Of a DNA stretch of 32,000 nt, positions 2,926 to 28,725 are shown one piece after another (position 1 is the stretch's first letter; every line of letters begins with the position of its first letter). The stretch is from assembly GCF_000012545.1 (NCBI RefSeq), contig NC_007681.1, positions 810,001 through 842,000 on the forward strand, given 5' to 3'. A program made the position numbers and the translations under genes. The notes below the pieces were generated by a model. That model made no database searches and was not told the DNA's origin. It was given only the letters and a program-made list of their open reading frames with translations. Origin of the DNA: Methanosphaera stadtmanae DSM 3091. Its GTDB lineage: Archaea > Methanobacteriota > Methanobacteria > Methanobacteriales > Methanobacteriaceae.

Positions 2926-3110
2926 AATATAACCTCTAATGCTATCTCTATTACTTATATTATAAATCTTTTTAGATGAATTTAGTTATTTAAAGTAGAT
3001 TAAACTTATAAATAACATTTACAATGTTATTTTTTTTAATAGTTATGTATATTTTTATTTATTTAAGCTAAAATAAGAAAGAAACATGGTTATTTTATAT
3101 TTTCATTATT

Positions 3111-3368
3111 TTGGAAACAAAAATAGAAAAACAATATAATAAAATATTAGATGAAATAAAAACACTTGACGAATTAATACAAACAACAGAATATACACAT
3201 AATACAACAAAAGAATTAAAACAAGCAATAATCAATACAATACAATCACTAGTAGACCAGGAAGCAGAATACACATACAATGAAATAAGATATAATGGTT
3301 ACTTTGACAAAATAAGAGATGCAAAAATAAAACTTGGATTAGCAAATGAAACAGAGAGGAAATCATGA
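3111..3368 (+). CDS. hypothetical helical protein (TTG start)
   Basis: An 85-aa ORF with A-rich coding-strand bias like neighbouring plus-strand genes. Its stop overlaps the ATG of the next small ORF (ATGA). I recognised no family. Confidence 0.4.
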   Translation: METKIEKQYNKILDEIKTLDELIQTTEYTHNTTKELKQAIINTIQSLVDQEAEYTYNEIRYNGYFDKIRDAKIKLGLANETERKS

Positions 3369-3472
3369 AAAAACGAAGAAAACATTTAACACGTGATGAT
3401 ATAGCATGTATAATGGCAGTTATTGGAGTGCTTGTTATTATTTTTTTAAAGAATGCTGGTTTCGTTTGTTAG
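3365..3472 (+). CDS. hypothetical 35-aa single-pass membrane peptide
   Basis: My own translation is MKKRRKHLTRDDIACIMAVIGVLVIIFLKNAGFVC*. It has a basic N-terminus followed by one hydrophobic helix. The ATGA overlap with the upstream ORF suggests coupling. It is below the ORF-track length cutoff. Confidence 0.3.
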   Translation: MKKRRKHLTRDDIACIMAVIGVLVIIFLKNAGFVC

Positions 3473-3810
3473 GGAAAAATAAGTAGTTAACTGATAAAAG
3501 AGGTGAACTAGGAAATATAAGATAAGGAATACTAGTTTATCGTTAGTAGGCTGTAAAATAGAGTAAATTAATATAATAAGATGAAAAATAAGTAAACAAT
3601 AATTTACATGTAATAACTAAACTATAAAGTAATATGAATCTCAAAAGATTAGGAGTATAGTTATATGGCCGTTCCACGACAAATCTTCTAATTTATATTA
3701 TCCGAATAGTCCCTATGAGTTTAGTGTACTTCCCCTTGAAATTAGGTCAAGTATATGAGAATTTTTTAGGAAAAACAACATTTAAAGTAGCAAAAATATA
3801 GAAAAAGAAA

Positions 3811-3845
3811 GGAGATAAATAGTATAACACAATACTATTTACTCC
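3811..3845. other. strong stem-loop (14-bp stem with one bulged A, 6-nt loop) in a stop-dense intergenic region
   Basis: GGAGATAAATAGTAT-aacaca-ATACTATTTACTCC. The right arm is the reverse complement of the left arm apart from one extra A. No ORF covers it on either strand. Confidence 0.5.
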
Positions 3846-4032
3846 TAAAACTAATTTTAAAAAATAATATTAAAAATTCACTCCCACAACGAAGTAAAAT
3901 AATTCTCGTGAGCCTGCTTCAAAAAAAATAATAAAAAAATAAAAAACAGACTATATCTAAACAATTGTCATTCACATCATATATATATAAAAAGGAATTA
4001 TATAAAAATTAAGAATTACATAAAACAATTAC

Positions 4033-4882
4033 ATGAGTAAAAATAACAAAAGTCTTTTTGATGATTATAAAAAATTTGAAAGAATACTAAAAATTAATCC
4101 AGATAATAACGTTTTAGACACAAGTACAGAAGATTTTTTAGCACCTACAACTTTAATTCCTCTTTTAATACACGCTATTAAAAAATGATATTCAAGAATT
4201 TCATACTCATAAAGATACACGAGATTATGTATTACATATATTAAAAAGAGAACAAATAGGTAATAACACACCATTTAGGATATTACCAAAAACTAAAGAA
4301 GCTTTTAATGATGAATCAATTTCAATGGAAGTTGGAAATTTAATTACAGAGGATTATGCGGGAAAACAATCAATTAACTTCGTTATCTCAGAATTGGTGA
4401 ACAATATATATGATCATACATCATTCGAAAAAAAATATGCAAGTCATGGTTATATCTATGCTCAACTATATCCTATCTGGAAAAAATTAGATATAACTGT
4501 ATATGATGATGGATTATCTATTCCTGGAAGATTTGATAAATCAAATGTAGACTATGAAAATGATTGTCATGCTATTGAAAAAGCATTAACCCAATTTACA
4601 ACTATCAAAAATAGACAATCTGAACGAGGAAATGGATTAGGGTCATGTATGAAATTAATCAAAGCTAATAAAGGTTCAGCTTTAATTGTTTCTAGAAAAG
4701 GATGTTTAGAAGTAGATGAAAAAAGAAAAAAATATCATTATCATAACCTAAACAATGAAAAATTATTCAAAGGAACATTAATAACATTAAGATTTAGGGA
4801 TAACCCCATAAATTTTTATGAAGCATTGGATGATGGATACATTCATGGAACACCCTACAAATACGTGGAGAATAATATATGA
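4033..4882 (+). pseudogene. GHKL/HATPase_c ATPase (RsbW/SpoIIAB-like), read in two frames with the switch at an A6 tract (4180-4185)
   Basis: Frame 1 runs from ATG 4033 to TGA 4186-4188 (MSKNNKSLFDDYKKFERILKINPDNNVLDTSTEDFLAPTTLIPLLIHAIKK*). Frame 2 is open from 4169 and runs without any ATG/GTG/TTG into the tracked ORF at 4325-4882. ATPase motifs are the N-box ELVNNIYDH, G1 YDDGLSIPG and G2 ERGNGLGSCMKL. Confidence 0.6.
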
Positions 4883-5139
4883 AAAAAATAATTTTAAACG
4901 AAATTTACTCTTCTCATTTAGAAATGAGTTTCACAGCAGAAGATTTATTTACCAATCAAATAAACAACAATGACTTTTCAGAGATAATAATAGATTTCAC
5001 AGGAATAACATTCATGAGCTTGTCATTCACACAAGAATATGTCTACCAAAAAACCCATACAAGTAAGAAAATAACAGAAATAAAAATGCATGAAGACATT
5101 AAACCAATGTTAGAACTAGTAGAAAAAAGAGAAAAATAA
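4879..5139 (+). CDS. STAS-like DUF4325 domain protein
   Basis: An 86-aa ORF whose ATG overlaps the stop of the ATPase (ATGA). The core IIIDFTGITFMSLSFTQEYV resembles the DUF4325 signature (lDF.gV..issSF.dE). Confidence 0.6.
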   Translation: MKKIILNEIYSSHLEMSFTAEDLFTNQINNNDFSEIIIDFTGITFMSLSFTQEYVYQKTHTSKKITEIKMHEDIKPMLELVEKREK

Positions 5140-5346
5140 ACCATTTAATGTATATGTACTGTATGATAATTACTAATTTTTAAACTCTTTTACTAAATAA
5201 AAAAAATCACGTCCATCTAATAAAAGGGGAATGATGTGATGGTGTACATAGAAAGAACAAAAATTGAACAGTATGTATATCAATAGTAAGTAAAAATATA
5301 ACGTAAACCTAATTAATAAAAAAATATTCAAAAAAAAAGAATAAAT

Positions 5347-5592
5347 TTATTGTTTATCTTTATGATAAACATCTAAAAATACTATAAAATCTTTTTGCTC
5401 TTCATAAACATAAGACAAACGAAATGGAGAAACATACACCTCAAGAGTACCCTTACGATTATGTCTCATAGGCTTACCAATCACTGGATTAGACACAATT
5501 TTCCGTATCTGCTTCTTAACACGAAGCTTATAAGTATTATCAAGATTGGATATAACTTTACAAAAATGGTCATCATAAGATACAGTTACCAT
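5347..5592 (-). CDS. relE: RelE/ParE-family type II toxin
   Basis: 81 aa. The sequence ...NPVIGKPMRHNRKGTLEVYVSPFRLSYVYEEQKDFIVFLDVYHKDK is the typical RelE C-terminal core. The start overlaps the upstream gene's stop by 7 nt (ATGGTAA). Confidence 0.8.
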   Translation of the reverse strand: MVTVSYDDHFCKVISNLDNTYKLRVKKQIRKIVSNPVIGKPMRHNRKGTLEVYVSPFRLSYVYEEQKDFIVFLDVYHKDKQ

Positions 5593-6128
5593 TTTTCCAA
5601 CTCACCCAGAAAATCAGATTCACCCATAGAAACAAGAGAACTTTCATCAATATCAGTAAGTAAATTTTTTACATGTTTTTCATGTTCAAAATCATCTTTA
5701 AGAATATGATGGTTAAAATATTGTTCATGTTCTATTAACTTGTCATGTATATATGGTAGTTTAGTTTCGTATTCTGTTTGACTAATCTTATCTTCCATGT
5801 AATATGAAACAATTAAATCTAATAGTTGTACGGATAGTTTTTGTAATTCAAGTCCAAAGGTTAAGTTAGTTAATGTATTATTTTCTTCAATAATATAGTT
5901 TACATTATCATTTGCTGTCTTGACTTCCATTAGTTCATCGTATAATTCATATAAGTGTTCTGTGGGTAATTTATTGTTTTTGATTCTGAGGGATATGTCG
6001 TTTATTTGGTAGTTCAGTTGGGAGTATGAATCAGAGTCAATCTCTTTGATTAGAGAGTAGGAGCCAAGGTTAGTGAAAAAGTGGGATATGGTATTATTGA
6101 AGGTTTGAAAAGCATTTATGTTCATCAT
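5586..6128 (-). CDS. putative cognate antitoxin, unusually large (about 180 aa), no recognised family
   Basis: It sits immediately upstream of relE and overlaps it. I trimmed the start to MMNINAF (ATG at 6128), which has a GGTGA ribosome-binding site 7 nt upstream. The tracked start at 6242 would add a hydrophobic low-complexity leader. Confidence 0.5.
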   Translation of the reverse strand: MMNINAFQTFNNTISHFFTNLGSYSLIKEIDSDSYSQLNYQINDISLRIKNNKLPTEHLYELYDELMEVKTANDNVNYIIEENNTLTNLTFGLELQKLSVQLLDLIVSYYMEDKISQTEYETKLPYIHDKLIEHEQYFNHHILKDDFEHEKHVKNLLTDIDESSLVSMGESDFLGELEKW

Positions 6129-6356
6129 ATTATTTTCACCTTCTGTATGTTTAATATTATTATAATTCTTTGTAGTATATACAATTATTGTACTAATAAA
6201 GTGAATTATAAAATACATAAGATGAACTAAAATAATATTCAATTTATTTTTTTGTATGTTTGGTAATATTTTTTAATATAATTAGTATGACTTAAATAAT
6301 AAATACTTCTTAAAAGATAACTATCAATAGAAAGAATTAATGGAGAAATTTTTATT

Positions 6357-7133
6357 ATGAAAAAAGGTGAAAGATATGAAAATCCTTATTTAACTGAAGT
6401 TATAGTAAGGATTAATTTTTCTACAATACTTGCATTATCAGGTAATAATGAAAGTGCTGCAGAAGATTTTCGTAAGAATATATTTGAACAATATCCAATA
6501 GCCTTACTGAAAAAAAATCATGAAGTGAATATTGGATTAAATATTCAATCAGATGGCTTTAATCAAATTAATCAAAGAGATAAAATAATATGGGAATTTA
6601 AAAATAAAGAAGATAATAAAAAAATAGAATTATCTGATTCATATGTTTTATTAACATACACTAAAGAAGCTTATACCAATTTCCGATATTTACTACAAGA
6701 CATCATATTAATATTAGATGCATTGAAAAAATATTCTCCTATAAACCCACATTTACTCCAGTTACGATATATTAATCAACTATCAGGTAAATCAATTGAA
6801 GAATTAACTAAATGCATTAACAAACCTTATTTCAATGAAGAGATAATAGATTTAAATGGTAAGGATACCTTTGTTCAAAATCTAAGTAGATTAACAATAA
6901 CTGAAGGAAAATATCTTTTAAATACCCAATATGGACTGTTTAATCCAGGTTATCCGAATCCAAATTTTGAAAAGAATTATATACTTGATTTTGACTGTAG
7001 TTTTTATAACATTGAATCAATGAATCAAATAAATGAAGAATTAAAAGAAATGAATTATTTTATATGGAAGCAATTCCAATTAGCTATAACAGATAAACTA
7101 AAAAAAGAAATGAAAGGTGAATTAGATGAATGA
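6357..7133 (+). CDS. TIGR04255-like uncharacterised protein
   Basis: 258 aa. The N-terminus ERYENPYLTEVIVRINF matches the remembered family signature (Y.nPPl.Ev..e.rF). A GGAG lies upstream of the ATG. Confidence 0.55.
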   Translation: MKKGERYENPYLTEVIVRINFSTILALSGNNESAAEDFRKNIFEQYPIALLKKNHEVNIGLNIQSDGFNQINQRDKIIWEFKNKEDNKKIELSDSYVLLTYTKEAYTNFRYLLQDIILILDALKKYSPINPHLLQLRYINQLSGKSIEELTKCINKPYFNEEIIDLNGKDTFVQNLSRLTITEGKYLLNTQYGLFNPGYPNPNFEKNYILDFDCSFYNIESMNQINEELKEMNYFIWKQFQLAITDKLKKEMKGELDE

Positions 7134-7584
7134 AACAATATCATATAATGAATTAGAAAAAACCAATTCAAATAATATTCACCCTTATTCTGAACATAGT
7201 AAAACAATAAGCACTGACGATTATTTTAAACAACTTTCAGAAAATAAATTCTATTCTGAATTCCAAGAATATTTATCAAACAATTATTCACTTATTAACA
7301 AAGAAGAAATAATTAATTTTATAAGTTATAAACCATTACTTACAGAGCTCATTAAAGAATTAACTGTAATAATTAGAAAAAGTTTTGAAAAAAATGAATT
7401 AAGTATGGAATTCATACAAGATCCAGAAATAACTGACTTAAAATATTTAAATATATATATCCATTCTAGTGAAGAATCATTTAATAAAGATTGGAATACT
7501 TTGAAAATAATAAACCAAGATATTAGACAATTAAAATTACTGGATAATTCAATCAAAAAATATATACTGGTGGATTTGTGGTAA
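7126..7584 (+). CDS. hypothetical protein, middle gene of the TIGR04255/HEPN operon
   Basis: A 152-aa ORF whose start overlaps the upstream stop (ATGAATGA). The next gene starts 3 nt after its stop. I recognised no motif and no nucleotidyltransferase GS/DxD signature. Confidence 0.55.
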   Translation: MNETISYNELEKTNSNNIHPYSEHSKTISTDDYFKQLSENKFYSEFQEYLSNNYSLINKEEIINFISYKPLLTELIKELTVIIRKSFEKNELSMEFIQDPEITDLKYLNIYIHSSEESFNKDWNTLKIINQDIRQLKLLDNSIKKYILVDLW

Positions 7585-7587
7585 AAT

Positions 7588-7944
7588 ATGGGGTTTGATT
7601 GGAAAAAATATCACGAGGTAGGGGAACATCTTAAAAACTATTCTGAAGATGAAGCATATCAACGTGCAGCTATCAGCAGATATTACTATGCTTATTTCAA
7701 TATAATTAGGAGATACTTTGAAAAAAAGCACTATGAAATTCATTCTAAATATGTACATCAAAAACTTATAGATGAATTAAAGAATTCCCTTGATGATAAT
7801 GAATATCAACTGAGTGATTATTTAAAAAGATTCCGTGGGTATAGGAATAATGCAGATTATGATGACAAGTTTAAAGCACGGAATATACAAAAAACACAGA
7901 AATTAATTAAAGATATGGATAAGATATTATCTAAACTTCAATAA
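7588..7944 (+). CDS. HEPN-domain protein
   Basis: 118 aa. It has AYQRAAISRYYYAYFNIIRRYF ... LKRFRGYRNNADYD, the four-helix HEPN pattern (a.sRaYYA.Fha ... lr..R..ADY). A GGTGG ribosome-binding site lies upstream. Confidence 0.7.
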   Translation: MGFDWKKYHEVGEHLKNYSEDEAYQRAAISRYYYAYFNIIRRYFEKKHYEIHSKYVHQKLIDELKNSLDDNEYQLSDYLKRFRGYRNNADYDDKFKARNIQKTQKLIKDMDKILSKLQ

Positions 7945-8032
7945 CATCATCACACTTTTTTTTTAATTATTTTATTATTATTAATATTATTATATATAAT
8001 TATAAATAATGTTTAGGATGTGAAATAACACT

Positions 8033-8338
8033 ATGCGAAATAAATTATTAATAACTTGTGGACTTATTGTAATTATAGTAGCAGTTGTATGTGTAGGTGT
8101 AATATATAATTTCAATGATACAAATACTACAAATTCATCTCTAAATTCCACTAATAATACAACAAATTCAAATCAAGAAACAAGTTCTAAAAATTTAAAA
8201 TCATCAACAAACACCAAATCAGACCCAGATAAGAAATATCGTTATTCAGAACAGTATGGAACATACATAACTGAATATACAGATTCAAATGGTGTACAAC
8301 ACATAGATTCAAATGATGGATCATATAAAGGATCTTAG
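8033..8338 (+). CDS. small N-terminally anchored Asn/Thr/Ser-rich secreted protein
   Basis: The N-terminus has a hydrophobic helix, LLITCGLIVIIVAVVCVGVIY, followed by NDTNTTNSS... The ORF ends at an in-frame TAG (8336-8338). The same frame then stays open for 27 more codons to TAG at 8420-8422. Confidence 0.6.
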   Translation: MRNKLLITCGLIVIIVAVVCVGVIYNFNDTNTTNSSLNSTNNTTNSNQETSSKNLKSSTNTKSDPDKKYRYSEQYGTYITEYTDSNGVQHIDSNDGSYKGS

Positions 8339-8811
8339 GATCCTGTAACTGGTGGATTTGAAGAATATTCAAAAGAATATGGTTATGAATCAAATGGACG
8401 TCCTATTCGAAGTGCAGTATAGTTATCATATGAATGATTTAATAAGTAATTATTTTTTAGATAGTTCTGAAACAAAATTAAAACATTTAAGACATTTGAA
8501 AGATAAATAATTAGTTGTAGAATAAATAGTTTCTTTAATTATGGTGCTATTTATTCTATTTTCTAATATTAATACCTATTTTACTATTTAATGGTAAAAT
8601 TTTTATATTAAGTATTATTTGTGTAAAATCTGATTTTAGAGTATAAATATTTTAAAAATTATTTTGTGAATATGACTTTTCTAGAAAACCATTATTTTAT
8701 AATAATTAATCATTAACTTTTATCATTTAAAATATTTATTATCCTTATAAATTTTAACTAAAATAAGATTTAACAGATTATAATATTATTAATCATAGAA
8801 TAAGTCCATTT

Positions 8812-8820
8812 CCCCCCCCC
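8812..8820. repeat. C9 homopolymer followed directly by T5
   Basis: The sequence reads tccatttCCCCCCCCCtttttatc, about 215 nt upstream of the giant gene's ATG. It stands out against the AT-rich background. Confidence 0.9.
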
Positions 8821-8911
8821 TTTTTATCTAAGAAAATATATTTATTTTCTAAAATTATTTAAAGTTAATTTAATTGAATTAAATTTAAATATAATATTTC
8901 TTAAATTAGTA

Positions 8912-8935
8912 ATAACTAAGGTATATCTTAGTTAT
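8912..8935. promoter_or_regulatory. inverted repeat (9-bp arms, 6-nt spacer) in the leader or promoter region of the giant surface-protein gene
   Basis: ATAACTAAG-gtatat-CTTAGTTAT has perfect arms and lies about 100 nt upstream of ATG 9035. The function is inferred only. Confidence 0.3.
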
Positions 8936-9034
8936 ATTTAAAATATATTTAATTTATTTTAAAAAAAGGAATAATGGGAAAAAACCATTGATTTCTATTA
9001 TTCTTTAAAAGAAATGGAGGAAAAGTGATTTAAA

Positions 9035-12000
9035 ATGAAGAATAAAATATTAATATCTTCTATATTTTTAATAGTATTATTATTTAGTCTTTCAACAATA
9101 ACGGCAGTAGACACTAATACAACAAATATGAATACAATAGAAAAACAAACAACAGACACGACAAAATCTACTCTAAACATAGTATCAAACAATGATAATA
9201 ATGAACTTAAATTTAATACAACAAAAAAAGAAATTATTCCAAAAAATAAGGAAATTAAAACAAAAACCAGTTCAATTAAAGAACATGGAATAGCTAACAC
9301 TAAAACTTTAAAGAAAAATAATGAAGTTAGTTATTATGTATCAACAACAGGATCAGATAATAATACAGGTTCAAAAGATAATCCATATAAAACAATACAA
9401 TATGCAATTGATAAAACAACAACAAATAATACATATAACATTTTCATTAAATCAGGAAATTATACCGGGGTAGGAAATACTAACTTAACAGTAAATGGTA
9501 ATCATAAAATTAACTTCATTGGTGAAGGTATCAATAAAACAATACTTGATGGAGAAGCAAATTATGTGATAGACCCTAATCCTGGTTATGTATGGGAAAG
9601 TTCAAAAATTTGGTGGCCATATATTAATGCTACAGGTAATTATGGAATGACTATAACAAAGGGTAATGGACATATTTCTATTTATAATTTATCAATAGCT
9701 CATATGTGGAGTCCTGGAGGAAGTAGTATCAGTGCATATCCTCATGCAACTATTGATAATTATGGAAATTTAAGCATAAACTCTGTAGAATTTCATGAAA
9801 ATTATGCAGGTGTAGGAGCAGGTGTTAGAAATAATTATGGTGCAACATTACTAGTTAATAATTCCCTATTTGAAGAAAATCGTAAAAGTAGTTCTACAGG
9901 AAATAATGGAATTATTTATAATAATGGTACAGCAACCATATTAAATTCATTATTTAATCATAATTATGCTCGTTGGGGAACAATATTAAATGATAACAAT
10001 ATCACTATGATAAATACAACATTATCTAATGGTATTGGTTATGATGGAAAGAGTGGTTATAAATATGGAAGTGGTTTTGCATGTAACTCTGGTGGGGCTG
10101 ACTTTTATTTACCAGGATTTTTCTTAACATACAATAATATAATCAATTGTACTTTTATTAAAAATGATCAAAGTGATATTTATGGTTATCAAGGAAACAT
10201 TTATGCTTATGGAAATAAATTTATTAATTCTACAGGTATTAGGTTAATTGATAGTCAAAATTCAAATATAACCTATAATATTATAAACAATTCAATGGAA
10301 GATATTGTAGAATCTACTATTAGTACTACTTTAACTACTGGTGCTAGAACATATGCTATTGATGCTCAAATTACTAGTAATAATTTGACTATAATAAATA
10401 ACACAATTTCAATGGATAGAGGTACTGCTATCAGTATAAAAAAAGGAAATATTATTAACAATACAATTATTATGTATGGTCCATCACATGTTATAAAAAA
10501 AGCTATAGAAGTTAGTGGATCTAATTCTACAATAACTAATAATATTATAAATGAATATATTGAACTTAAGGGAAATTCAAATATAATTACTAAAAACAAT
10601 ATAGAAACAACTTCAAACTATGCAATATCAGTATATAATTCTGCTATTAATAATACTATTGTAGAAAATAATTTAGTTTCTAAAGAATTAATTGGAGATT
10701 ATGCTGTATATGGAAATAATATAAAAAATACAATTATAAATAATACTCCAATGCCTAATAGTGATGATTTATATGTAAGTCCTATTGTTAATGAAGCAAG
10801 AAATGGAACTATGGATAATCCAACTTCTTTAACTGATGCACTAGAGAGAATAACAAGTACAGGTACAATATACTTATTTTCAAAAAATAAAAAATATGAC
10901 TTATTAAATTCAGTAATAATTAATGAAACAACTGTTAAAAATACAAAAACAGTACGTATCAAAGGAATTTTAAATAATACTCCTGTATCTGGAAATAACA
11001 AAACTCAACTATTTAATATAAAAGAAGGATTTACTGTAATACTGGATAATTTAAAATTTATCAATGGTACTTCATCGAATGGTGGGATAATATATTCAGA
11101 AGGAAATTTAACAGTAACTTCATCAATATTCCAAGATAGTTATGCAGACAATGGTGGGGCAGTATTTATAAATAAAAGTGGAAATCTTATATTAAAAAAT
11201 AACTCTTTTAAAAATATAAGTTCTCTAAATGAAACATTAATATTTAATTCAATAGGAAACAATCTATTAGAAAATAATACTTATGAAAATTGTGATATTA
11301 AATTAAAAAAATTTACAATAACAGCAAGTACTTCAAATCCAAATCCTATTCTAGTAAATAATACTATAACTGTTAATATAGATAATGTAATTCTAGAAAA
11401 TCCAACATATTATGATAGTAACATAACAAATAATATCAATTATAGTATTTATAGAAATGATATTTTATTAGATACAATTACTACAACTTCTTATACATTA
11501 AATTCAACAATACCTACTAATATTACAACATATATAATATCTAATTTTTCAAAAGAAAAATCAAATACATTAACATTTAATATAATTTACTTAAAAGCAA
11601 AAGCAATAACTTCAAACACTCCAACTACTATTGTGTTTATTAATGAGGATATACACATCACAACAACATTAATTGATGAATTTAATCAACCAGTAACTAG
11701 TGGAGTTATTAGTTATTATAATAATACAATCCTTATGGGTACAGTAGAAGTAATAAATGGAAGTGCAAGATTAACATTAAATAAAACATCTAATATTGGA
11801 ACAACAGAAATAACTATAAAGTATACTGATGCTAGTAATATCTATGAAAATCATACAAATAAAACATCACTTGTAATATTAGATAATGTATATGTAAGTT
11901 CAGAAGTTACACAACCAGCTTCAGGATCAATAGATAATCCAACAACACTTACTGATGCTTTATCTAAAATAAAAGATGAAAAAACAATATATTTACTTAA

Positions 12001-15000
12001 TGGGATTTATTATATAAATAATCAAATAACAATTAGTAAAAACACTACTAATGCAACGACATTTAATATTATTGGTCAAAAAGATGTAACATTTTTTGGA
12101 CAAAATAAATCATCCATGTTAAATATTACTAAAGATTTTACTATAAAAATTACTAATATTACTTTTAGAAATATAAATAAAGAAGGACTTTATGGTGCAA
12201 TAGTTAATATGGGAAAATTAACATTGATAAATACTACTTTTTTAAATAATTATAATGAATATGCTGAGGGTACTGCATTACATAACTATAATGGTACTGT
12301 TATAATAGAAAATTCATCATTTATTAATAACACTGGGAAAAATGGTGGAGTAATATTTTCAAAAGGTAATTTATCTATATCTAATACATTATTTACTAAT
12401 AATTCTGCAGAATATGGTGGAATAATTTATTCAGCAGGATATGTTCAAAGAATAATGTTATATCCAGGATTTTTCATATATAAAGTAATGTCTGGAAATC
12501 TTACAATATCTAACACTACATTTAATAATTCCATAGCAAAAGAGGATTATGGAGCAATATATTTCTTAGGAATAGATTTAGTATTAGAAAACAATACTTT
12601 TAGTAATATTCAATCAAAAAATGAAACAATAGTAATTAAAGAAATTACAAATAGAATTATGAAAAATAATGTGTATATTAACTGTTCTATAAACTCAACA
12701 ATTCAAATATCCTCTGATGCTACAAATCCATCACCTATGAAGGTAAATGATACTTTAAAATTCAATATAGATAATATAAAAATTAAGAATCCTAGAAATT
12801 ATGATGATAACATAACAAGTAGTATTAAATATAATATATATTTAAATAATATTAAAATTGACACAACAGATTATAATCCAAATTCATTTAATATAATACC
12901 TACAATACATGATACAGTAACATTATATGTCATACCTACATTTACTAAAACTAAATCAAACACACTTATTGATGTGGAAATATATGATCTTAAAAATACT
13001 ATTATTAAAGCAGAAAACACAGTAAGTTATAGTGATGAAAATACGACAATAAATATATCAGTAACTGATAAATTAGGAACATTAGTATCTGATGGTGGAA
13101 TAATAAGGATATATGAAAATAATATATTGTTAGGTGAAGCTCCAACTCACAATGGTGTAGCTATTATTAAAATAAATCCATTATCAACAGGAATACATAA
13201 TATAACTATAAAATATATTGGAACAGAAACGGGAATTTACAATAATCAAACAAACACATCATCTATATTCTCATTGGGAAAACATGTCTATGTAAGTCCA
13301 GATGTAACTGAAATACAAGAAGGTACATTATCTAATCCAACAACACTTAATGATGCTTTATCAAAAGTTGGAAACTATGGAACAATACATCTATTATATG
13401 GTACTAATGGAATATATTTCATTAATGAACCAATATATGTAGCTTATGGATATTTACATTCAACTACTAATAATATTAATATAATAGCTCAAAATAGAGT
13501 AATATTTGATGGTAGTGGTAATAATATGAGAATAATGAGTATAATTTATCGAAATGTATCTATGACTAATATCTCCTTTATCAATTCTAGATCAATAGTT
13601 AATAATGGAAATTTAACTTTAATAGATTGTATATTTGATAATAATACTGCAGAAATAAAAAATGGTGGAGCAATTGAGAATAATGGACATTTAATTATTA
13701 TAAATAGCACATTTATAAACAACAAAGCTATTAATGGTGGAGCAATTAGTAATGGGGGAACTATTGAAACAAAAGGAAAAATATTATTCAAAAACAATGT
13801 TGCAGAACAAGGTGGAGCAATTAGTAATAATAATTTTGGAAAAATAGATATGAATGGTGAAATTTTATTCATAAATAACACTGTTAAAGGAAATAATAAT
13901 GTCTATGCTGGAGCAATCTATAACTTAGGAAATATAACATTAACAGGTAACACTTTATTTATAAATAATACAGCAAGTGGTAATAGTATTATTTATGGTG
14001 GAGCAATTTACAACAAAGGAAATATAACTAGTATAGGAAATACTACCTTTAATAATAACAAAGTAATAGCAGTAACTGCAGGATCTGGAGGCTCAATATA
14101 TAGTTTAAGTGGTGTACTTATTTTTGAAGGAAACAACACCTTTAATAATAATGAAGCTACTACAAATGGAGGAGCAATACAATTACCAACTTCAAATACT
14201 AAATTAATATTAAATAACAATACTATATTTAGTAATAATAAGGCATATGAATCTGGAGGAGCTATGTCTATCTTGACAGCCCTATTTGAAATAAATGGAA
14301 ATATAACATTTAGAAATAATTCTGCAGATAAAGGTGGAGCATTATATTTAGTTGGAAGTAAATATATTCCACGTAAGTATAATATAGTAAATGCTATATT
14401 TTTAGATAATAAAGCATTTATTGAAGGTGGAGCAATTTACACAAATTACATAAATCTAACATTAGAAAATAATACTTTTACTAATATAATAAGTCCAAGT
14501 GAAACATTATTCCTAAATACTACAGGAACAAATATTTTATCTAATAATACATATATAAACTGTTCAATATTAACAACACCTATAATATTAAATTCAAACA
14601 AGTCCCCAAACTTTTTATTAAAAATAAATAGTACTATTATATTAATGCTTGAGCAATTTGAATTAATAAATCCTAGTTATTATGATAGTAACATATTAGA
14701 TAATGTTTCATATAATATATATAGAAATGATGAACTTATAAAAAATAGTGATTCAATGATATATAACTTAATAGTTGATACAGATAGACAGATAACTACA
14801 TATATTATTCCAAGTATTTTAAGTACTAAATCAAACATATTAACATTTAAAGTACAAAGTTATACTAATGTAATAATAGATCCAGTAATTGCACAAGTAG
14901 GCGATATAATTAATTTAAGAGCACAAGTAACAGATAGTGAAGGAAATCCAGTATCTAATGGACGTGTAATATTTAAAGTAAATGGTAAAACAATAAGAGA

Positions 15001-15490
15001 TAATAATGGAAATATAATTTATGTACAAGTAATTAATGGAATAGCTATACTTGAAAATTATAGAGTACCAACAACTTGGATAAAATCAAAACCAGTACTA
15101 AATGCAGTTTATGGTGGAAATAATCAATATATAACTGGAAGAACAAATAATACGATACCAATGAATATAACTAAGAAAGAAGTATCTATGACAATGACAA
15201 CAAACACTACAACAGTAAAACCAGGCCAAACAATAAAAATAACAGTGAAAATAACAGAAAAAGATACTAATGTAAATGAAGGACAGGTATTATTTAAGGT
15301 AAATGGTAAAACAATGAGAGATAATAAGGGATATATAGTCTACCATGAAGTTAAAGATGGACTAGTAACAATAACATACACAATACCAGAAAATGCCAGA
15401 GCACAAGACTATACATTCACATGTGTATATGGACACAAGTTATACAATAGAAACGATATAAACAGCACCATAACTGTTGTAAAAAACTAA
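9035..15490 (+). CDS. giant (2151 aa) secreted Asn/Thr-rich adhesin-like surface protein with four right-handed beta-helix/PMP-repeat modules and Ig-like domains
   Basis: A single uninterrupted ORF with a GGAGG ribosome-binding site. The signal/anchor is MKNKILISSIFLIVLLFSLSTITAVD. GGA[IVM] and FxNN motifs recur. The beta-helix cap motif YVS...NP(T/Y)..(L/I)..A(L/I) appears four times. Ig-like segments sit at the C-terminus. Confidence 0.9.
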   Translation: MKNKILISSIFLIVLLFSLSTITAVDTNTTNMNTIEKQTTDTTKSTLNIVSNNDNNELKFNTTKKEIIPKNKEIKTKTSSIKEHGIANTKTLKKNNEVSYYVSTTGSDNNTGSKDNPYKTIQYAIDKTTTNNTYNIFIKSGNYTGVGNTNLTVNGNHKINFIGEGINKTILDGEANYVIDPNPGYVWESSKIWWPYINATGNYGMTITKGNGHISIYNLSIAHMWSPGGSSISAYPHATIDNYGNLSINSVEFHENYAGVGAGVRNNYGATLLVNNSLFEENRKSSSTGNNGIIYNNGTATILNSLFNHNYARWGTILNDNNITMINTTLSNGIGYDGKSGYKYGSGFACNSGGADFYLPGFFLTYNNIINCTFIKNDQSDIYGYQGNIYAYGNKFINSTGIRLIDSQNSNITYNIINNSMEDIVESTISTTLTTGARTYAIDAQITSNNLTIINNTISMDRGTAISIKKGNIINNTIIMYGPSHVIKKAIEVSGSNSTITNNIINEYIELKGNSNIITKNNIETTSNYAISVYNSAINNTIVENNLVSKELIGDYAVYGNNIKNTIINNTPMPNSDDLYVSPIVNEARNGTMDNPTSLTDALERITSTGTIYLFSKNKKYDLLNSVIINETTVKNTKTVRIKGILNNTPVSGNNKTQLFNIKEGFTVILDNLKFINGTSSNGGIIYSEGNLTVTSSIFQDSYADNGGAVFINKSGNLILKNNSFKNISSLNETLIFNSIGNNLLENNTYENCDIKLKKFTITASTSNPNPILVNNTITVNIDNVILENPTYYDSNITNNINYSIYRNDILLDTITTTSYTLNSTIPTNITTYIISNFSKEKSNTLTFNIIYLKAKAITSNTPTTIVFINEDIHITTTLIDEFNQPVTSGVISYYNNTILMGTVEVINGSARLTLNKTSNIGTTEITIKYTDASNIYENHTNKTSLVILDNVYVSSEVTQPASGSIDNPTTLTDALSKIKDEKTIYLLNGIYYINNQITISKNTTNATTFNIIGQKDVTFFGQNKSSMLNITKDFTIKITNITFRNINKEGLYGAIVNMGKLTLINTTFLNNYNEYAEGTALHNYNGTVIIENSSFINNTGKNGGVIFSKGNLSISNTLFTNNSAEYGGIIYSAGYVQRIMLYPGFFIYKVMSGNLTISNTTFNNSIAKEDYGAIYFLGIDLVLENNTFSNIQSKNETIVIKEITNRIMKNNVYINCSINSTIQISSDATNPSPMKVNDTLKFNIDNIKIKNPRNYDDNITSSIKYNIYLNNIKIDTTDYNPNSFNIIPTIHDTVTLYVIPTFTKTKSNTLIDVEIYDLKNTIIKAENTVSYSDENTTINISVTDKLGTLVSDGGIIRIYENNILLGEAPTHNGVAIIKINPLSTGIHNITIKYIGTETGIYNNQTNTSSIFSLGKHVYVSPDVTEIQEGTLSNPTTLNDALSKVGNYGTIHLLYGTNGIYFINEPIYVAYGYLHSTTNNINIIAQNRVIFDGSGNNMRIMSIIYRNVSMTNISFINSRSIVNNGNLTLIDCIFDNNTAEIKNGGAIENNGHLIIINSTFINNKAINGGAISNGGTIETKGKILFKNNVAEQGGAISNNNFGKIDMNGEILFINNTVKGNNNVYAGAIYNLGNITLTGNTLFINNTASGNSIIYGGAIYNKGNITSIGNTTFNNNKVIAVTAGSGGSIYSLSGVLIFEGNNTFNNNEATTNGGAIQLPTSNTKLILNNNTIFSNNKAYESGGAMSILTALFEINGNITFRNNSADKGGALYLVGSKYIPRKYNIVNAIFLDNKAFIEGGAIYTNYINLTLENNTFTNIISPSETLFLNTTGTNILSNNTYINCSILTTPIILNSNKSPNFLLKINSTIILMLEQFELINPSYYDSNILDNVSYNIYRNDELIKNSDSMIYNLIVDTDRQITTYIIPSILSTKSNILTFKVQSYTNVIIDPVIAQVGDIINLRAQVTDSEGNPVSNGRVIFKVNGKTIRDNNGNIIYVQVINGIAILENYRVPTTWIKSKPVLNAVYGGNNQYITGRTNNTIPMNITKKEVSMTMTTNTTTVKPGQTIKITVKITEKDTNVNEGQVLFKVNGKTMRDNKGYIVYHEVKDGLVTITYTIPENARAQDYTFTCVYGHKLYNRNDINSTITVVKN
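9332..14869 (+). repeat. four tandem protein-level modules inside the giant gene, starting near 9332, 10772, 11891 and 13289
   Basis: Module heads are YYVSTTGSDNNTGSKDNPYKTIQYAIDK, LYVSPIVNEARNGTMDNPTSLTDALERI, VYVSSEVTQPASGSIDNPTTLTDALSKI and VYVSPDVTEIQEGTLSNPTTLNDALSKV. Modules 2-4 also share NNTY(E/I)NC...NP.(Y/N)YD.NI...Y(N/S)IY(R/L)N...SNTL/SNIL blocks. Confidence 0.7.
13600..14470 (+). other. densest run of polymorphic-membrane-protein-type repeats (GGAI ... FxNN) within module 4
   Basis: More than ten successive units, for example NGGAIENNGHLIIINSTFINNKAINGGAISNGGTI...AEQGGAISNNNFG...YAGAIYNLGNITLTGNTLFINNTA...YGGAIYNKGNITSIGNTTFNNN... Confidence 0.7.
14870..15487 (+). other. two C-terminal Ig-like (Big-type) domains
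   Basis: Paired segments VGDIINLRAQVTDSEGNPVSNGRVIFKVNGKTIRDNNGNIIY... and PGQTIKITVKITEKDTNVNEGQVLFKVNGKTMRDNKGYIVY... have a beta-sandwich-like pattern. Confidence 0.55.
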
Positions 15491-21890: not shown

Positions 21891-24059
21891 CTAAAATAAT
21901 TGTTGAATATAATCAATAATTCTTCTGAAAATAGATTTATTTTCCTCATAAGTATTATATTCTTTGATTTCTTTTATTGCACGTTTTTGGAAGAAATCCT
22001 GTGAACTAAATTGTTTTTGCTCTTTAATATATTCATAATCACCTTTTTTATTGATTCTACGACCTTTAATATCATCTTTTAGCATGGCTTCTATATCTTC
22101 AAGAATTCTTTTTCTAATATCAAAATCTTCAATAGGACATGCAACTTCAACTCTTTTTGCCGTATTTCTGGTCATAATATCAGCACTGGAAATATAAATT
22201 TTTCTATCAGAACCCTTACCAAAAATATAAATTCTTGAATGTTCAAGATATCTGCCAACAATACTTCTAACTTCAATATTGTCTGTTTTACCTGGAAGTC
22301 CTGGTATTATACAACAAATACCTCTTATTATCATGGTTATTTTAACACCCTTCTGGGAAGCTTCAACTAACTTGTTAATAATCTTTCTATCAGTTAAGGA
22401 ATTCATCTTCATTATAATTCCATTTTCCATATTATTTTCTGACTTCTTTATTTCCTCATCAATATATTTAATTATATTATTTCTAAGACTAGTTGGAGCA
22501 ACAAGTAACTTATCATATGTTCCATTAAGATTAGATAATGCCATATTTTTAAAGAAACGTATAGCATCTTCTCCTATTGTTTGATTTGATGTAAGATATG
22601 CATAATCAGTATATAACTTTGCAGTTTTCTCATTATAATTTCCAGTACCAATCTGAGTATAATGAGTTATTTTATTTTTAGATTTTCTTGTTACAACACA
22701 AATCTTTGAATGAACCTTGTAATTTTCAAAACCATAAATTATTTGACATCCTGCTTCTTCAAGAAGTTCAGCATTATATATGTTGTTTTTCTCATCAAAA
22801 CGTGCACGTAATTCAATAAGAACAGTTACATCCTTTTCATTTTCAATAGCTTCAAGTAAATATTTAATTACATGGGATGATCTTGCAACACGATATAATG
22901 TAATTTTAATGGATGTTACATCATCATCATTTGCAGCTTCTTTTAAAAATCCAAGAAATGTGTTCATGGATTCATATGGATAGAAAAGTAGGACATCTTT
23001 TTTATCTAATTGTTTAAATACTGATTTTTTAGTATTAAGATTTGGTGATTTTTGAGACTTAAATTCTGGAAATGTTAATTCTTCCTTAATTTGTTGTGGC
23101 AGAGAATCAATTAAATCATAGGTATAATCCATATTAATAGGAGTATTTGTTACAAAGACTTGATTTTTATGTAAATCAAGTTTACGTCTTAAATTCTTGT
23201 TATATTTATGATTATAGTATTTATAAAACTCTAACCTTATAGGTGCAAGCCTATTTCTTTTTTTAAGAATATTTTTCATATAGTGTCTATAATCTTCATC
23301 CTCATCTATTGGAGAGTTTTGTAAGTTCACATCAGCATTTCTTGTTACTGCTGTAATTGTAGAATATTTAACAGTATAATTTGAAAATATTTTCTCTGCA
23401 AATGCATAGATTAATTCTTCCATAAGAATATATTCATGTGTACCTGGAAACATCACATATGCAGGTAACTGTTTTGGTATAGGTATTAATCCCATACAAC
23501 GAGTATTTTCATTCTCAAGTATGGAATAAATATACAACTTCTTATTAATCATATGTGGAAATGGATGTCTTAGATCTATAATTTGTGGAGAAAGTAGTGG
23601 TGAGACATTTTCATAGAAATATTGTGTTATGTATTTTCTTTTTAAACTATCTAGTTCATCAAAACTATGTCTAATAATACGATATTCACGTAACTTAGCC
23701 AATATCTTAGAATATATTTCATCTTTTTCTTTATAAAGAGGTGCTGTTTTTTCATATATTAAATTCAATTGTTCCTTTGCAGTAAGTCCTGTTTTATTAT
23801 CTCTAAGTTTTTTATCAACAAGACTTATATCATATAAACTTCCACATCTAATCATGTAAAATTCATCAAGATTACTTGTGAATATTGATATGAATTTTAC
23901 TTTTTCAAGAAGAGGAACTGTTTCATCAGCAGCTTCTCTAAGTACTCTTTGATTAAATTTAAGCCATGATAACTCCCTATTTTGTGTATATTTATATTTA
24001 GAAGGAGTTTCTTTTTTTCTTATTATATTATTGGTTTCATTCATTGTCATTTTTATCAT
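21891..24059 (-). CDS. ppk1: polyphosphate kinase 1
   Basis: 722 aa. The N-terminal signature is NRELSWLKFNQRVLREA. It has SNLDEFYMIR and two PLD-like HxK regions (KVHSKICVV, LEHSRIYIF). Confidence 0.9.
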   Translation of the reverse strand: MIKMTMNETNNIIRKKETPSKYKYTQNRELSWLKFNQRVLREAADETVPLLEKVKFISIFTSNLDEFYMIRCGSLYDISLVDKKLRDNKTGLTAKEQLNLIYEKTAPLYKEKDEIYSKILAKLREYRIIRHSFDELDSLKRKYITQYFYENVSPLLSPQIIDLRHPFPHMINKKLYIYSILENENTRCMGLIPIPKQLPAYVMFPGTHEYILMEELIYAFAEKIFSNYTVKYSTITAVTRNADVNLQNSPIDEDEDYRHYMKNILKKRNRLAPIRLEFYKYYNHKYNKNLRRKLDLHKNQVFVTNTPINMDYTYDLIDSLPQQIKEELTFPEFKSQKSPNLNTKKSVFKQLDKKDVLLFYPYESMNTFLGFLKEAANDDDVTSIKITLYRVARSSHVIKYLLEAIENEKDVTVLIELRARFDEKNNIYNAELLEEAGCQIIYGFENYKVHSKICVVTRKSKNKITHYTQIGTGNYNEKTAKLYTDYAYLTSNQTIGEDAIRFFKNMALSNLNGTYDKLLVAPTSLRNNIIKYIDEEIKKSENNMENGIIMKMNSLTDRKIINKLVEASQKGVKITMIIRGICCIIPGLPGKTDNIEVRSIVGRYLEHSRIYIFGKGSDRKIYISSADIMTRNTAKRVEVACPIEDFDIRKRILEDIEAMLKDDIKGRRINKKGDYEYIKEQKQFSSQDFFQKRAIKEIKEYNTYEENKSIFRRIIDYIQQLF

Positions 24060-24953
24060 TCTCTATAATGGAATATACTACTCCTTCTCGTACAGTTTTA
24101 TGACTTACATGGATTTGTTTTATATTAAAATATTCTGCAATTGTTGCTATTATGACAAGACCTGGTACAAGTGTATGTATACGTTCTGCTTTTACTTGAA
24201 GAATTTTAGTAAAATATTCTTTATTATTTTTATTTAATTCACTTTGTAATTTTTTAAGCATTGCTGGTGTTATAATAGATGTTTTGTCTTCTTTTATACA
24301 TATATGTTCCAATACCTTTTTAATAGCACGTATTGTACCACCAACAGCATATAAGTGGGTGACTGTATGTTTATTTACTTCTGATTTTTTAATTTTCTCT
24401 AATACATCATTTCTTATAGCTTCACATTCACTAGTTGATGGTAACATAACAGATACATATTTGTAGTAACTATTTAGTGAGCCAATATCTATACTTGTTA
24501 ATTCTTGTGGTGTTCTATTGTTAAAGTAAACAATTTCAGAACTTCCTCCACCAACATCACAGAGAATACCCTCATCAGATGTCATTTTTCCACTATTTTT
24601 AACAGCATTAAAACTCATCATAGCTTCAGTTTTACTCTCAAGTAAATATATATCAATATTAAGTTCTTCTTTTATAAGTTGAAGAATATCATCACTATTT
24701 TTGAGATTTCTTATACTAGCAGTTGCAAAGTAACAAACATTATCAACTTTTAATTGAATAAGATTCTTTTAAATGATTTTAATATGGATAATAATGTTTG
24801 AATTCCTTCATCATTTAATTTATTATTTTCTTTATATGAAATAAGACCAGCTGTTTTCTTTTTTGAAATTATTGTTTTAAGTTTTCCTTTTTTATACTGG
24901 TATAGTTGTAATCTTATTGTATTTGAACCTATATCTACTACTGAATATATCAT
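24037..24953 (-). pseudogene. ppx: Ppx/GppA-family exopolyphosphatase, split between two reading frames (switch within 24752-24770)
   Basis: The N-terminal ORF at 24953-24750 (MIYSVVDIGSNTIRL...) ends at TAA. A second frame is open from 24768 and reads KNLIQLKVDNVCYFATASIRNLKNS...LCDVGGGSSEIVYF..., which is the rest of the Ppx/GppA fold. Its 3' end overlaps the ppk1 start by 23 nt. Confidence 0.7.
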
Positions 24954-27864: not shown

Positions 27865-28713
27865 TTACATCATTTTTTTGATTTTGGTGACAATATTTGT
27901 GACAGGTTTTTTTAGAAACATGTTTGATAAAAATGCTACAACTACACCTAAGATTATCAGAGTAATTAGATGGGTTCCAACGTAGTATTCATATAACTCT
28001 ACAGCAAATGAACCATATACAACTCCAAAGAGTGGACTTTCTAGAATACCTAAGAATAATCCGACAATGAATCCGGATATTGTTGCATTAATTTCATTAT
28101 CAATAGGTGCTGCACAGAATCCTACAGATAGTATAATAGCTATTATATATGCATACCATGATAGTTCCAACCATACTCCTATTATAGATAATACTATTGA
28201 CATTATTAAAGCTATAACAGCGGGTATTATTATGCTTACTAAATTAATTTTTTTTCCAATACTTGGATTTGATTCTTCTCTAGTTTTTATATTATCGTTT
28301 ATATGGGTTGAGTATTCTCGAGAATATCCTGTACTATTTTGATTATTTACTTTTGTTCCGCATGTTGGACAAAAGAGAGTGTTTTCTGGGATTGGTGTTC
28401 CACATTTTTCACATTTTAGTTCTTCTTCCTCTTCATATTCTTCGTCGAGTCTATTGCCACATAATGGACAAAGTATATTGTCTGAATATATTCTGGCACC
28501 ACAGTTTTTACAGGTCCGGGTAAGGGTTTGTTCTGATGAATTCTGTTCTTCTTCAGTTTTAAACTCTTGACTTTCATCAGATTCAGCCTTTTGGTTTTTA
28601 TCAGATTTGAATTCTTGATCTTCACCTGTTTTAATAGTGGCTAGTTTTCCGCAATTTGGACAACTTTCCATACCTTCTGGAATAGTTATTCCACAATTAT
28701 CACATTTAACCAT
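27865..28713 (-). CDS. membrane protein with three N-terminal zinc-ribbons, acidic linkers and about four C-terminal transmembrane helices
   Basis: Zinc-ribbons are MVKCDNCG...CPNCG, CKNCG...CPLCG and CEKCG...CPTCG. Hydrophobic segments run from about residue 160 to the C-terminus. Confidence 0.75.
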   Translation of the reverse strand: MVKCDNCGITIPEGMESCPNCGKLATIKTGEDQEFKSDKNQKAESDESQEFKTEEEQNSSEQTLTRTCKNCGARIYSDNILCPLCGNRLDEEYEEEEELKCEKCGTPIPENTLFCPTCGTKVNNQNSTGYSREYSTHINDNIKTREESNPSIGKKINLVSIIIPAVIALIMSIVLSIIGVWLELSWYAYIIAIILSVGFCAAPIDNEINATISGFIVGLFLGILESPLFGVVYGSFAVELYEYYVGTHLITLIILGVVVAFLSNMFLKKPVTNIVTKIKKMM

Positions 28714-28725
28714 AATGTTTCACCC

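Follow-up and report, generated by a model that had tools for sequence, protein, structure and literature searches.

The window analysed here is a stretch of 32,000 nucleotides from Methanosphaera stadtmanae DSM 3091 (NC_007681.1, positions 810,001 to 842,000), with a G+C content of about 25%. Its forward strand carries, at window positions 6357-7944, the three tightly packed genes that are the subject of this report: g1 (6357-7133), encoding a 258-residue protein of the TIGR04255 family; g2 (7126-7584), encoding a 152-residue member of a small unannotated family, proposed here as the cognate antitoxin or partner of the HEPN protein; and g3 (7588-7944), encoding a 118-residue HEPN-domain protein of the HEPN-T or PF05168 type, a putative ribonuclease toxin. 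An earlier note on this DNA had described three same-strand open reading frames (ORFs) joined by an 8-nucleotide overlap and a 3-nucleotide gap, and had taken the packing to imply co-translation. Coordinates, overlap, and gap are exact in the ORF list and in the sequence, the peptides quoted there (YENPYLTEVIVRINF, SRYYYAYFNIIRRYF, and FRGYRNNADYD) are all present, and tight junctions recur in homologous loci. The overlap, ATGAATGA at 7126-7133, places the g2 ATG on the g1 TGA stop, an arrangement that to judge from its sequence is a signature of translational coupling. The g2 stop codon, TAA, ends at 7584, and the g3 ATG follows at 7588. Shine-Dalgarno-like motifs lie ahead of each start: GGAG (6342-6345), AGGTGA (7115-7120), and a GGTG-type sequence at about 7569-7582.

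Three lines of evidence mark these as real genes rather than chance ORFs: the score of g1 against the TIGR04255 model; the existence of homologues for all three; and the ratio of nonsynonymous to synonymous substitution (dN/dS) against two diverged copies, for which g1 gives 0.12-0.33, g2 about 0.5, and g3 0.15-0.21. All three genes are under purifying selection, with g2 evolving faster than its neighbours (about 0.5 versus 0.12-0.33). Because the genome is AT-rich, ORFs of these lengths are not expected by chance. Upstream, an AT-rich intergenic region of 114 nucleotides (6243-6356) is common to the operon and to a divergent ParE-type gene pair, and presumably contains the promoters; no operator-like repeats were found around them. 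Downstream of g3, a run of nine T residues (7956-7964, forward strand) at the end of a strain-variable island is likely an archaeal oligo-T terminator. No Rfam family was found in 3000-9000, which covers the operon and its leader, and no tRNAs were found in the window.

The earlier note had assigned the first gene to TIGR04255 from its amino-terminal signature. The assignment extends over the full length: g1 scores 127.2 bits (E 9.1e-37) on the NCBIfam model, whose curated cutoff is 30 bits, with residues 6-253 aligned to model positions 1-252 of 252. Searches of Pfam, PDB sequences, and PADLOC with g1 returned no match, and no mention of TIGR04255 was found in the literature searched. An AlphaFold (AF2) model made from 30 homologues (pLDDT 84.7; pTM 0.84) predicts two consecutive beta-alpha-beta4-alpha units, a topology resembling that of the TATA-binding protein (TBP). 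Foldseek comparison with PDB and viral models returned TBPs repeatedly, and also AdoMetDC and guanidino kinases, at TM-scores of only 0.25-0.46. Because these scores are low, the predicted fold is called TBP-like in topology, and g1 is not called a TBP homologue. An internal sequence repeat was considered and rejected, since the two halves have no detectable sequence similarity. The invariant residues include W79 and several that the model places on strands of the second half: R137-Y138-x-x-Q141 (in GLRYINQ); G193, F195, and N196; K206; and D211-x-D213. Their location suggests a functional sheet surface on this half of the protein.

The HEPN assignment of the last gene holds under profile search, though only at the level of the family. 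PF05168 matches six of ten g3-family members (best E 2.2e-5), and the PADLOC model HEPN_IX matches the window protein (E 7.7e-6). The g3 family profile in turn finds solved HEPN structures in the PDB (9xbd, E 3.7e-6; Retron-Kva2 HEPN, E 1.7e-5), through alignments that span the R..YYA.F helix, the His, and the RNxxDY motif. By these comparisons g3 belongs to the HEPN superfamily, detectably so at the profile level only. The RNxxDY motif is shared with 9xbd, for which a Y-to-F variant is deposited as 9xbc; a literature search on the two entries found nothing relevant. Across family members that are 28-86% identical, nine residues are invariant: R31, Y33, Y34, H57, R83, R86, N87, D90, and Y91. 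The canonical HEPN motif, Rx4-6H, is not among the conserved features. Instead g3 has R86-N87-x-x-D90-Y91, with D90 at the His position, and the invariant H57 lies upstream of R86-x3-D90. A HEPN-T variant with D in place of the conserved H, and a conserved H elsewhere, has been described, and some HEPN domains are non-catalytic (PMC3710099). Since the g3 motif fits this variant, ribonuclease activity is plausible, if non-canonical. The PADLOC system PDC-M05 needs components A and B; g3 gives weak matches to the B component only (E 7.2e-4 and 9.1e-3).

In the textbook pairing, a HEPN toxin of the PF05168 lineage goes with an MNT nucleotidyltransferase; the earlier note had seen no nucleotidyltransferase motif in the middle protein. 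Family-wide comparison agrees. The possibility of a divergent MNT was rejected: none of 52 members matches a nucleotidyltransferase family (E<=0.1), there is no conserved G-[GS] or DxD, profile search of the PDB found no relatives, and the topology predicted, at low confidence, is alpha-beta-beta-alpha-beta. Nor was an MNT or other nucleotidyltransferase found among the other window ORFs scanned. An exhaustive HMMER search places 61 cluster representatives of the g2 family in 1.84 billion. They share the core ...KYFP...L.LEF..DPE...L.IYI....FD.DW..L..L..EI......VDLW, in which only D99 and E101 are invariant; P100, in the same D99-P100-E101 loop, is nearly so, and VDLW is carboxyl-terminal. The amino-terminal 55 or so residues are variable and poorly predicted, and the AF2 model as a whole is poor (pLDDT 59): alpha-beta-beta-alpha-beta after a variable, unstructured amino-terminal third. 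No Pfam or PDB relatives of meaning emerged from scans of the 52 members or from a profile search of the PDB. A fold search found no match at E < 0.2, with a model too poor for the result to be trusted. A match to DUF6058 (E 1.3e-3; 19.4 bits against a 25-bit cutoff; one of 52 members) was treated as noise. Genes of the g2 family always adjoin a g3-type HEPN gene, in either gene order, with or without g1. One apparent g2-HEPN fusion, P0053, was rejected as such, because at its junction (...VDLW-W-I-M...) the gene caller seems to have translated a stop codon as Trp; as a read-through of g2 and HEPN, it counts only as evidence of adjacency.

The linkage of all three genes is conserved. The trio occurs in about 20 other Methanobrevibacter-type loci, including two proviruses and one deposited Methanobacteriales virus, with g1 identity as low as 28%; this is the co-localization for which the earlier note had proposed a neighbourhood search. 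Among the Methanobrevibacter-type loci that could be inspected, all those with a g1 identity to the window of 39% or more carry the trio (L009-L023, L026-L031, and L034), except L032, L033, and L035, which have a ParE pair instead. In the ten loci whose junctions were tabulated (L009, L010, L012, L015, L017, L020, L027, L030, L034, and L062), g1 and g2 overlap by 1-14 nucleotides, and the g2-g3 junction ranges from an 8-nucleotide overlap to a 5-nucleotide gap. The g3 start is uncertain in L026 and L028, where the first start codon taken by the ORF tool lies far upstream. The trio contigs L026 and L030, whose g1 is about 50% identical to the window g1, are binned in Bacteroidaceae and Anaeroplasmataceae metagenome-assembled genomes; they are probably mis-binned archaeal or viral contigs rather than cases of cross-domain transfer.

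Several of these settings are mobile. The deposited circular Methanobacteriales virus vir080 encodes a g1-like protein of 251 residues (28% identity), a g2-like protein of 160 residues, and a HEPN protein of 137 residues. The L012 copy comes after a prophage integrase, where a tail and baseplate module ends, and the L017 copy lies between Mu_F-type head and capsid genes. The window copy stands at the right-hand end of a 4.86-kb strain-variable island (3113-7969). In L068-type contigs, with flanks 99.6-99.7% identical, the island is replaced by about 1 kb of other sequence, so the variable presence that the earlier note had raised for comparison is borne out in close relatives. The right boundary falls at 7970, 26 nucleotides past the g3 stop. 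In the L070 strain type, only the left part of the island, 3559-5309, is exchanged. Besides the trio, the island holds an 85-residue ORF, a HATPase_c-like and DUF4325 gene pair, and the ParE-type toxin-antitoxin pair; no convincing flanking direct repeats were found that would mark attachment sites. The operon itself is mosaic in at least one comparison: between L010 (3502-3858 for g3) and the window (7588-7944), synonymous divergence is 0.11 for g1 and g2 and 0.66 for g3. This contrast implies that recombination swapped the toxin allele while g1 and g2 were kept.

The trio also comes apart, in two ways. First, g2-HEPN pairs occur without TIGR04255. In L001-L008 (for example, L001:3456-7508), a 121-residue HEPN protein, 44% identical to g3, lies between two g2 paralogues of 139 and 134 residues. 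In the high-GC locus L065, a tandem-duplicated g2 protein overlaps a full 124-residue HEPN (family profile E 6.6e-23), and in L066, also high-GC, g2 accompanies a truncated HEPN. As a separate observation, the L001-L008 region, from another Methanobrevibacter-type genome, resembles a small defence island, with an OLD-family ATPase/TOPRIM nuclease upstream and a 216-residue protein downstream.

Second, g1 occurs with other partners. In L032 and L033, g1 is followed by a protein of 79-86 residues and a ParE-family toxin; the third gene matches ParE_toxin in L032 and L035. The g1 proteins of L017 and L034, two HEPN-type loci, share 65-68% identity with their L032 and L033 counterparts but only about 40% with the window g1. 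Between HEPN-type and ParE-type loci, DNA homology gives out within the first few codons of the second gene. The pair behind g1 is swapped as a module. In L064, the second gene encodes an Xre-type helix-turn-helix, antitoxin-like protein. The window has a ParE/RelE-type toxin of its own, in the divergent neighbouring pair that lies outside the operon (5347-6242, reverse strand): an 81-residue protein (5347-5592; Pfam ParE; PHROG RelE-like, 8.3e-7) and a partner (5586-6128 or 5586-6242) that is unusually long, at 180 or 218 residues depending on the start. The pair is of the toxin-antitoxin family found behind TIGR04255 in other Methanobrevibacter loci: its toxin is 54% identical to the ParE protein in that position in L032, and the carboxyl termini of the two antitoxins share DFLxELExW.

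A third type of cassette was found in a census of 36 genome loci, which were sampled by pattern search rather than exhaustively. In 24 of them, TIGR04255 is followed by a low-complexity ORF of 47-89 residues, often with a 4- or 8-nucleotide overlap, and then by a conserved protein of about 190-230 residues. This last protein, here called QGD, has the motifs QGD, (T/S)Q(D/E/A)CD, RYH, IDFK, and LSRIGLP; it is encoded in L036, L038, L040-L058, L060, L061, and L063 (for example, L050:3155-3766), and L064 has a 305-residue relative with a similar amino terminus. Searches of Pfam, NCBIfam, and PADLOC found no match to it; the only match was a weak one, to phrog_4575. A D...D-x-K-like pattern, with conserved Cys and His residues, suggests a nuclease or peptidase. 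The distant TIGR04255 genes that accompany the QGD protein are 19-34% identical and come from bacteria, DPANN and other archaea, and the candidate phyla radiation; Methylocystis (NZ_CP143318) and Rhizobium plasmid copies are examples from culturable bacteria. Plasmids carry TIGR04255 too: in L063 beside an Abi-family gene and a recombinase, and in L064 beside an integrase. The middle ORFs of L040-L063 (for example, L054:3123-3302) end in a recurrent pattern, (D/N)F.I(S/P)T(D/E)(K/H)Y.KS.hKh..h.h, possibly a beta-strand docking motif.

Together, these observations lead us to read the trio as one operon encoding a tripartite toxin-antitoxin or abortive-infection-like module, carried by archaeal viruses and strain-variable islands, a reading to which we give slightly better than even credence. 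Put at the level of the module, as a conflict system of toxin, partner, and accessory, it seems modestly probable. The g2-g3 pair shows the generic features of type II toxin-antitoxin systems (adjacent genes, mobility, variable presence, and a known toxin superfamily), with toxicity and neutralization presumed. The effector would be g3, a minimal HEPN-T ribonuclease, presumably dimeric, which would cut RNA by means of R86, N87, D90, and H57 and thereby arrest growth. Its dedicated protein inhibitor would be g2, from a non-MNT family; it would probably bind and block the Arg-rich HEPN cleft, for which the acidic D-P-E loop is a candidate plug. The constant accessory, g1, would stand ahead of interchangeable antitoxin-toxin pairs and act on the product of the second gene. 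Control at this point is favoured because g1 is compatible with toxins that are related neither in fold nor in target. Like the chaperone of toxin-antitoxin-chaperone systems, g1 may stabilize the antitoxin or gate it, in which case the toxin would be released when the element is lost or when g1 senses an infection cue. Argued from this analogy, a chaperone or sensor role for g1 is a tentative proposal and, taken on its own, rather unlikely.

Several points weigh against this reading. The roles of all three families, including contact between g1 and g2, are ones that we infer. The g2-HEPN pairs found elsewhere without g1 indicate that g1 is dispensable for the basic pairing, and g1 is not SecB-like. 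The window g3 protein alone has no Pfam match at E<=1; it is without the His of Rx4-6H, so that its presumed ribonuclease activity depends on the alternative-site argument. No PADLOC defence model matches g1 or g2, the A component of PDC-M05 included. With a pLDDT of 59 for the g2 model, the binding mode proposed for g2 is a guess. Finally, two possible links between second-gene products were rejected. The MTPP amino terminus of second genes in the L017/L032 clade, considered as a g1-binding tag, is better explained by overlap with the conserved 3' end of g1. A motif that might join the carboxyl termini of the QGD-type middle ORFs (sTdkYxKSxhKh...) to ISTDDYFKQ in the amino-terminal part of g2 gave hidden Markov model scores of -4.0 to 0.3, within a shuffled null whose 95th percentile is 1.4.

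How does the proposed module compare with known systems? The earlier note had known of no described system that combines these three parts, and none was found; g1, g2, and the QGD protein are all without a model in PADLOC v2. The combination and the g2 family are new, whereas each component falls within a kind already known, be it HEPN toxin, tripartite toxin-antitoxin arrangement, or mobile defence or addiction cargo. The nearest published case, ORF2-4 of the Methanobrevibacter smithii provirus MSTV1 (PP537965), has a different first gene. There, three co-transcribed genes follow the integrase, the last encodes a HEPN protein, and an addiction module has been proposed; the module is expressed in lysogens, with ORF2 and ORF4 highly expressed (PMC11375127). 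The L012 trio occupies the equivalent post-integrase position, and ORF4 shares R..YY.A and R..ADYD with g3 (family profile E 1.1e-6), a distant relation only. However, no homology of ORF2 (91 residues) or ORF3 (119 residues) to g1 or g2 was detectable, and a TIGR04255 protein is absent. The integrases are only 35% identical, and the window copy is in a chromosomal island, not a provirus.

Likeness to the HepT/MntA system lies in g3, a small HEPN protein of the HEPN-T/PF05168 lineage with a conserved Tyr beside R-N. The difference is that no MNT is present: g2 and 51 aligned relatives have neither a nucleotidyltransferase match nor G-S...DxD, and a TIGR04255 gene is added. Toxin-antitoxin-chaperone systems associate a constant third protein, a SecB-like chaperone, with toxin-antitoxin pairs of different families, and in this the trio resembles them, since HEPN, ParE, and QGD pairs swap behind one g1 family. 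Yet g1 has no SecB or other Pfam match, its model is TBP-like, and it is encoded first rather than last; a chaperone-addiction segment was not identified in g2. The QGD cassettes, finally, share with the trio the first gene, the 4- or 8-nucleotide overlaps, and plasmid, integrase, and Abi contexts, but the two genes that follow have no relation to g2 and g3, and the cassettes are themselves undescribed.

Other explanations must be weighed against a tripartite module with g1 as accessory. The one that survives best, though we think it improbable, is a split RnlA-like ribonuclease, in which g1 would supply TBP-like nucleic-acid-binding domains in trans and position RNA or an RNA-DNA hybrid for cleavage by g3, with g2 as an RnlB-like blocker of the HEPN dimer. 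The RnlA-RnlB or LsoA-LsoB type of system, an anti-phage toxin-antitoxin carried by a cryptic prophage, combines a HEPN ribonuclease, two TBP-like domains (RnlA is TBP1-TBP2-HEPN), and a small alpha/beta antitoxin (PMC8266594). Fusions of TBP-like domains to RNase LS HEPN domains have also been noted (PMC3710099). The duplicated TBP-like topology and TBP matches of the g1 model, and the alpha/beta prediction for g2, are consistent with this picture. In RnlA and LsoA, however, the TBP-like domains and HEPN are parts of one chain; here a separate, first-encoded protein would supply them, and RnlA has the canonical Rx4-6H that g3 does not. Homology was sought with hhalign and rejected (g1-RnlA, g2-RnlB, and g3-RnlA, probability about 0.1 each), which leaves an analogy of fold class. 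RnlA is outside the top 50 Foldseek matches of g1, and TM-scores are low. Close relatives of g1 go with ParE/RelE-type toxins, for which an RNA-binding subunit is unnecessary, and the g2-HEPN pairs described above do without g1.

Slightly less probable still is an arrangement like that of omega-epsilon-zeta, in which g1 would be a DNA-binding autoregulator of the operon and g2 and g3 an ordinary type II pair. The order regulator, antitoxin, toxin fits; the fold that g1 resembles binds DNA in TBP; g2 has no recognizable DNA-binding domain; and a single divergent promoter region of 114 nucleotides lies upstream. On the other hand, the Xre-type helix-turn-helix protein encoded by the second gene of L064 would make a separate regulator redundant there, the conserved g1 residues include acidic ones on strands, unusual for a DNA-binding saddle, and the promoter is without evident operator-like repeats.

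We give little weight to the proposal that the trio is not a toxin system at all: that g3 is an inactive HEPN protein that binds nucleic acid or a nucleotide, in a trio with some other virus-host or regulatory role, or that g1 is a mere conserved neighbour. The missing His of Rx4-6H and the precedent of non-catalytic HEPN domains (PMC3710099) speak for it. But invariance of R31, H57, R83, R86, N87, D90, and Y91 at 28-86% identity argues for an active site; the partners that replace the HEPN pair include a bona fide toxin family (ParE); the trio is found in genomic settings typical of toxin-antitoxin or defence cargo; and translational coupling of g1 to g2 is kept down to 28% g1 identity. Least probable of all, g1 could be an enzyme that neutralizes or activates the toxin by covalent modification, an analogue of the MNT in type VII HepT/MntA with g2 as adaptor, a notion encouraged by the invariant g3 Tyr91 beside R-N-x-x-D (a candidate AMPylation site by comparison with HepT/MntA), by the RNxxDY shared with 9xbd and the deposited Y-to-F variant, by invariant D211-x-D213 on a strand of g1 with R137 and K206, and by Foldseek matches to ATP-using guanidino and protein-arginine kinases, but discouraged by the weakness of those matches (TM about 0.3), by the want of sequence relation between g1 and any enzyme family, and by the poor fit of a toxin-specific modifier to a protein that serves HEPN, ParE, and QGD-type partners.

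Returning to the reading of g1 as a constant accessory, we can extend it beyond the window. TIGR04255 proteins may form a widespread, undescribed class in bacteria, archaea, viruses, and plasmids: TBP-like sensors or controllers for swappable pairs of an adaptor or antitoxin and an effector, the latter a HEPN-T ribonuclease, a ParE/RelE-type toxin, or the QGD putative nuclease or peptidase. The window cassette would then be the HEPN-armed archaeal version, and the D-P-E domain a non-MNT partner for HEPN-T. This generalization is possible rather than probable, and we hold it tentatively.

Other features of the window deserve brief record. Within the island, two genes that overlap by 4 nucleotides (4325-5139, forward strand) encode a 185-residue HATPase_c-like protein (E 7.7e-5, below cutoff) and an 86-residue DUF4325, STAS-like protein (E 3.2e-4). 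They resemble mobile cargo of the anti-sigma-kinase and anti-anti-sigma-like kind; the L070 strain type has four other small genes at 3559-5309. About 650 nucleotides of the island (3370-4030) contain no ORF of at least 40 residues and are locally less AT-rich (for example, 3660-3720); Rfam found nothing there, and the segment could be a decayed gene or an unrecognized RNA. The conserved right flank of the island encodes a 2151-residue Asn/Thr-rich adhesin-like protein with an amino-terminal signal-like segment (9035-15490, forward strand), whose counterpart in related contigs matches Pel9A-like beta-helix and Big_3_5 domains. Farther right, 21891-24621 (reverse strand) encodes a 722-residue polyphosphate kinase with all four PPK domains. 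It overlaps by 23 nucleotides a 194-residue Ppx/GppA fragment whose match is confined to profile positions 101-283 and which may represent an exopolyphosphatase that has been truncated or split. At 27865-29634 (reverse strand), where G+C rises locally to 32-34% from about 25% elsewhere, two adjacent genes encode double-zinc-ribbon proteins of 282 and 302 residues, the second with a carboxyl-terminal SHOCT domain. The window's sulfite-reductase protein occurs, with its exact sequence, in 695 indexed data blocks; sequence of this host is very widespread in human gut metagenomes.

If the proposed roles are correct, a HEPN protein with a g2-type partner would represent a way of controlling HEPN ribonucleases other than through an MNT. 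TIGR04255, a curated family whose name reflects nothing but its sporadic occurrence, would gain a testable context in which it serves toxin modules as accessory, sensor, or chaperone. Its place as the fixed first gene of toxin cassettes also draws attention to an effector family that lacks annotation, the QGD proteins. Strain-variable carriage of modules of this kind bears on provirus maintenance and on virus resistance in a gut methanogen with almost no genetic tools.

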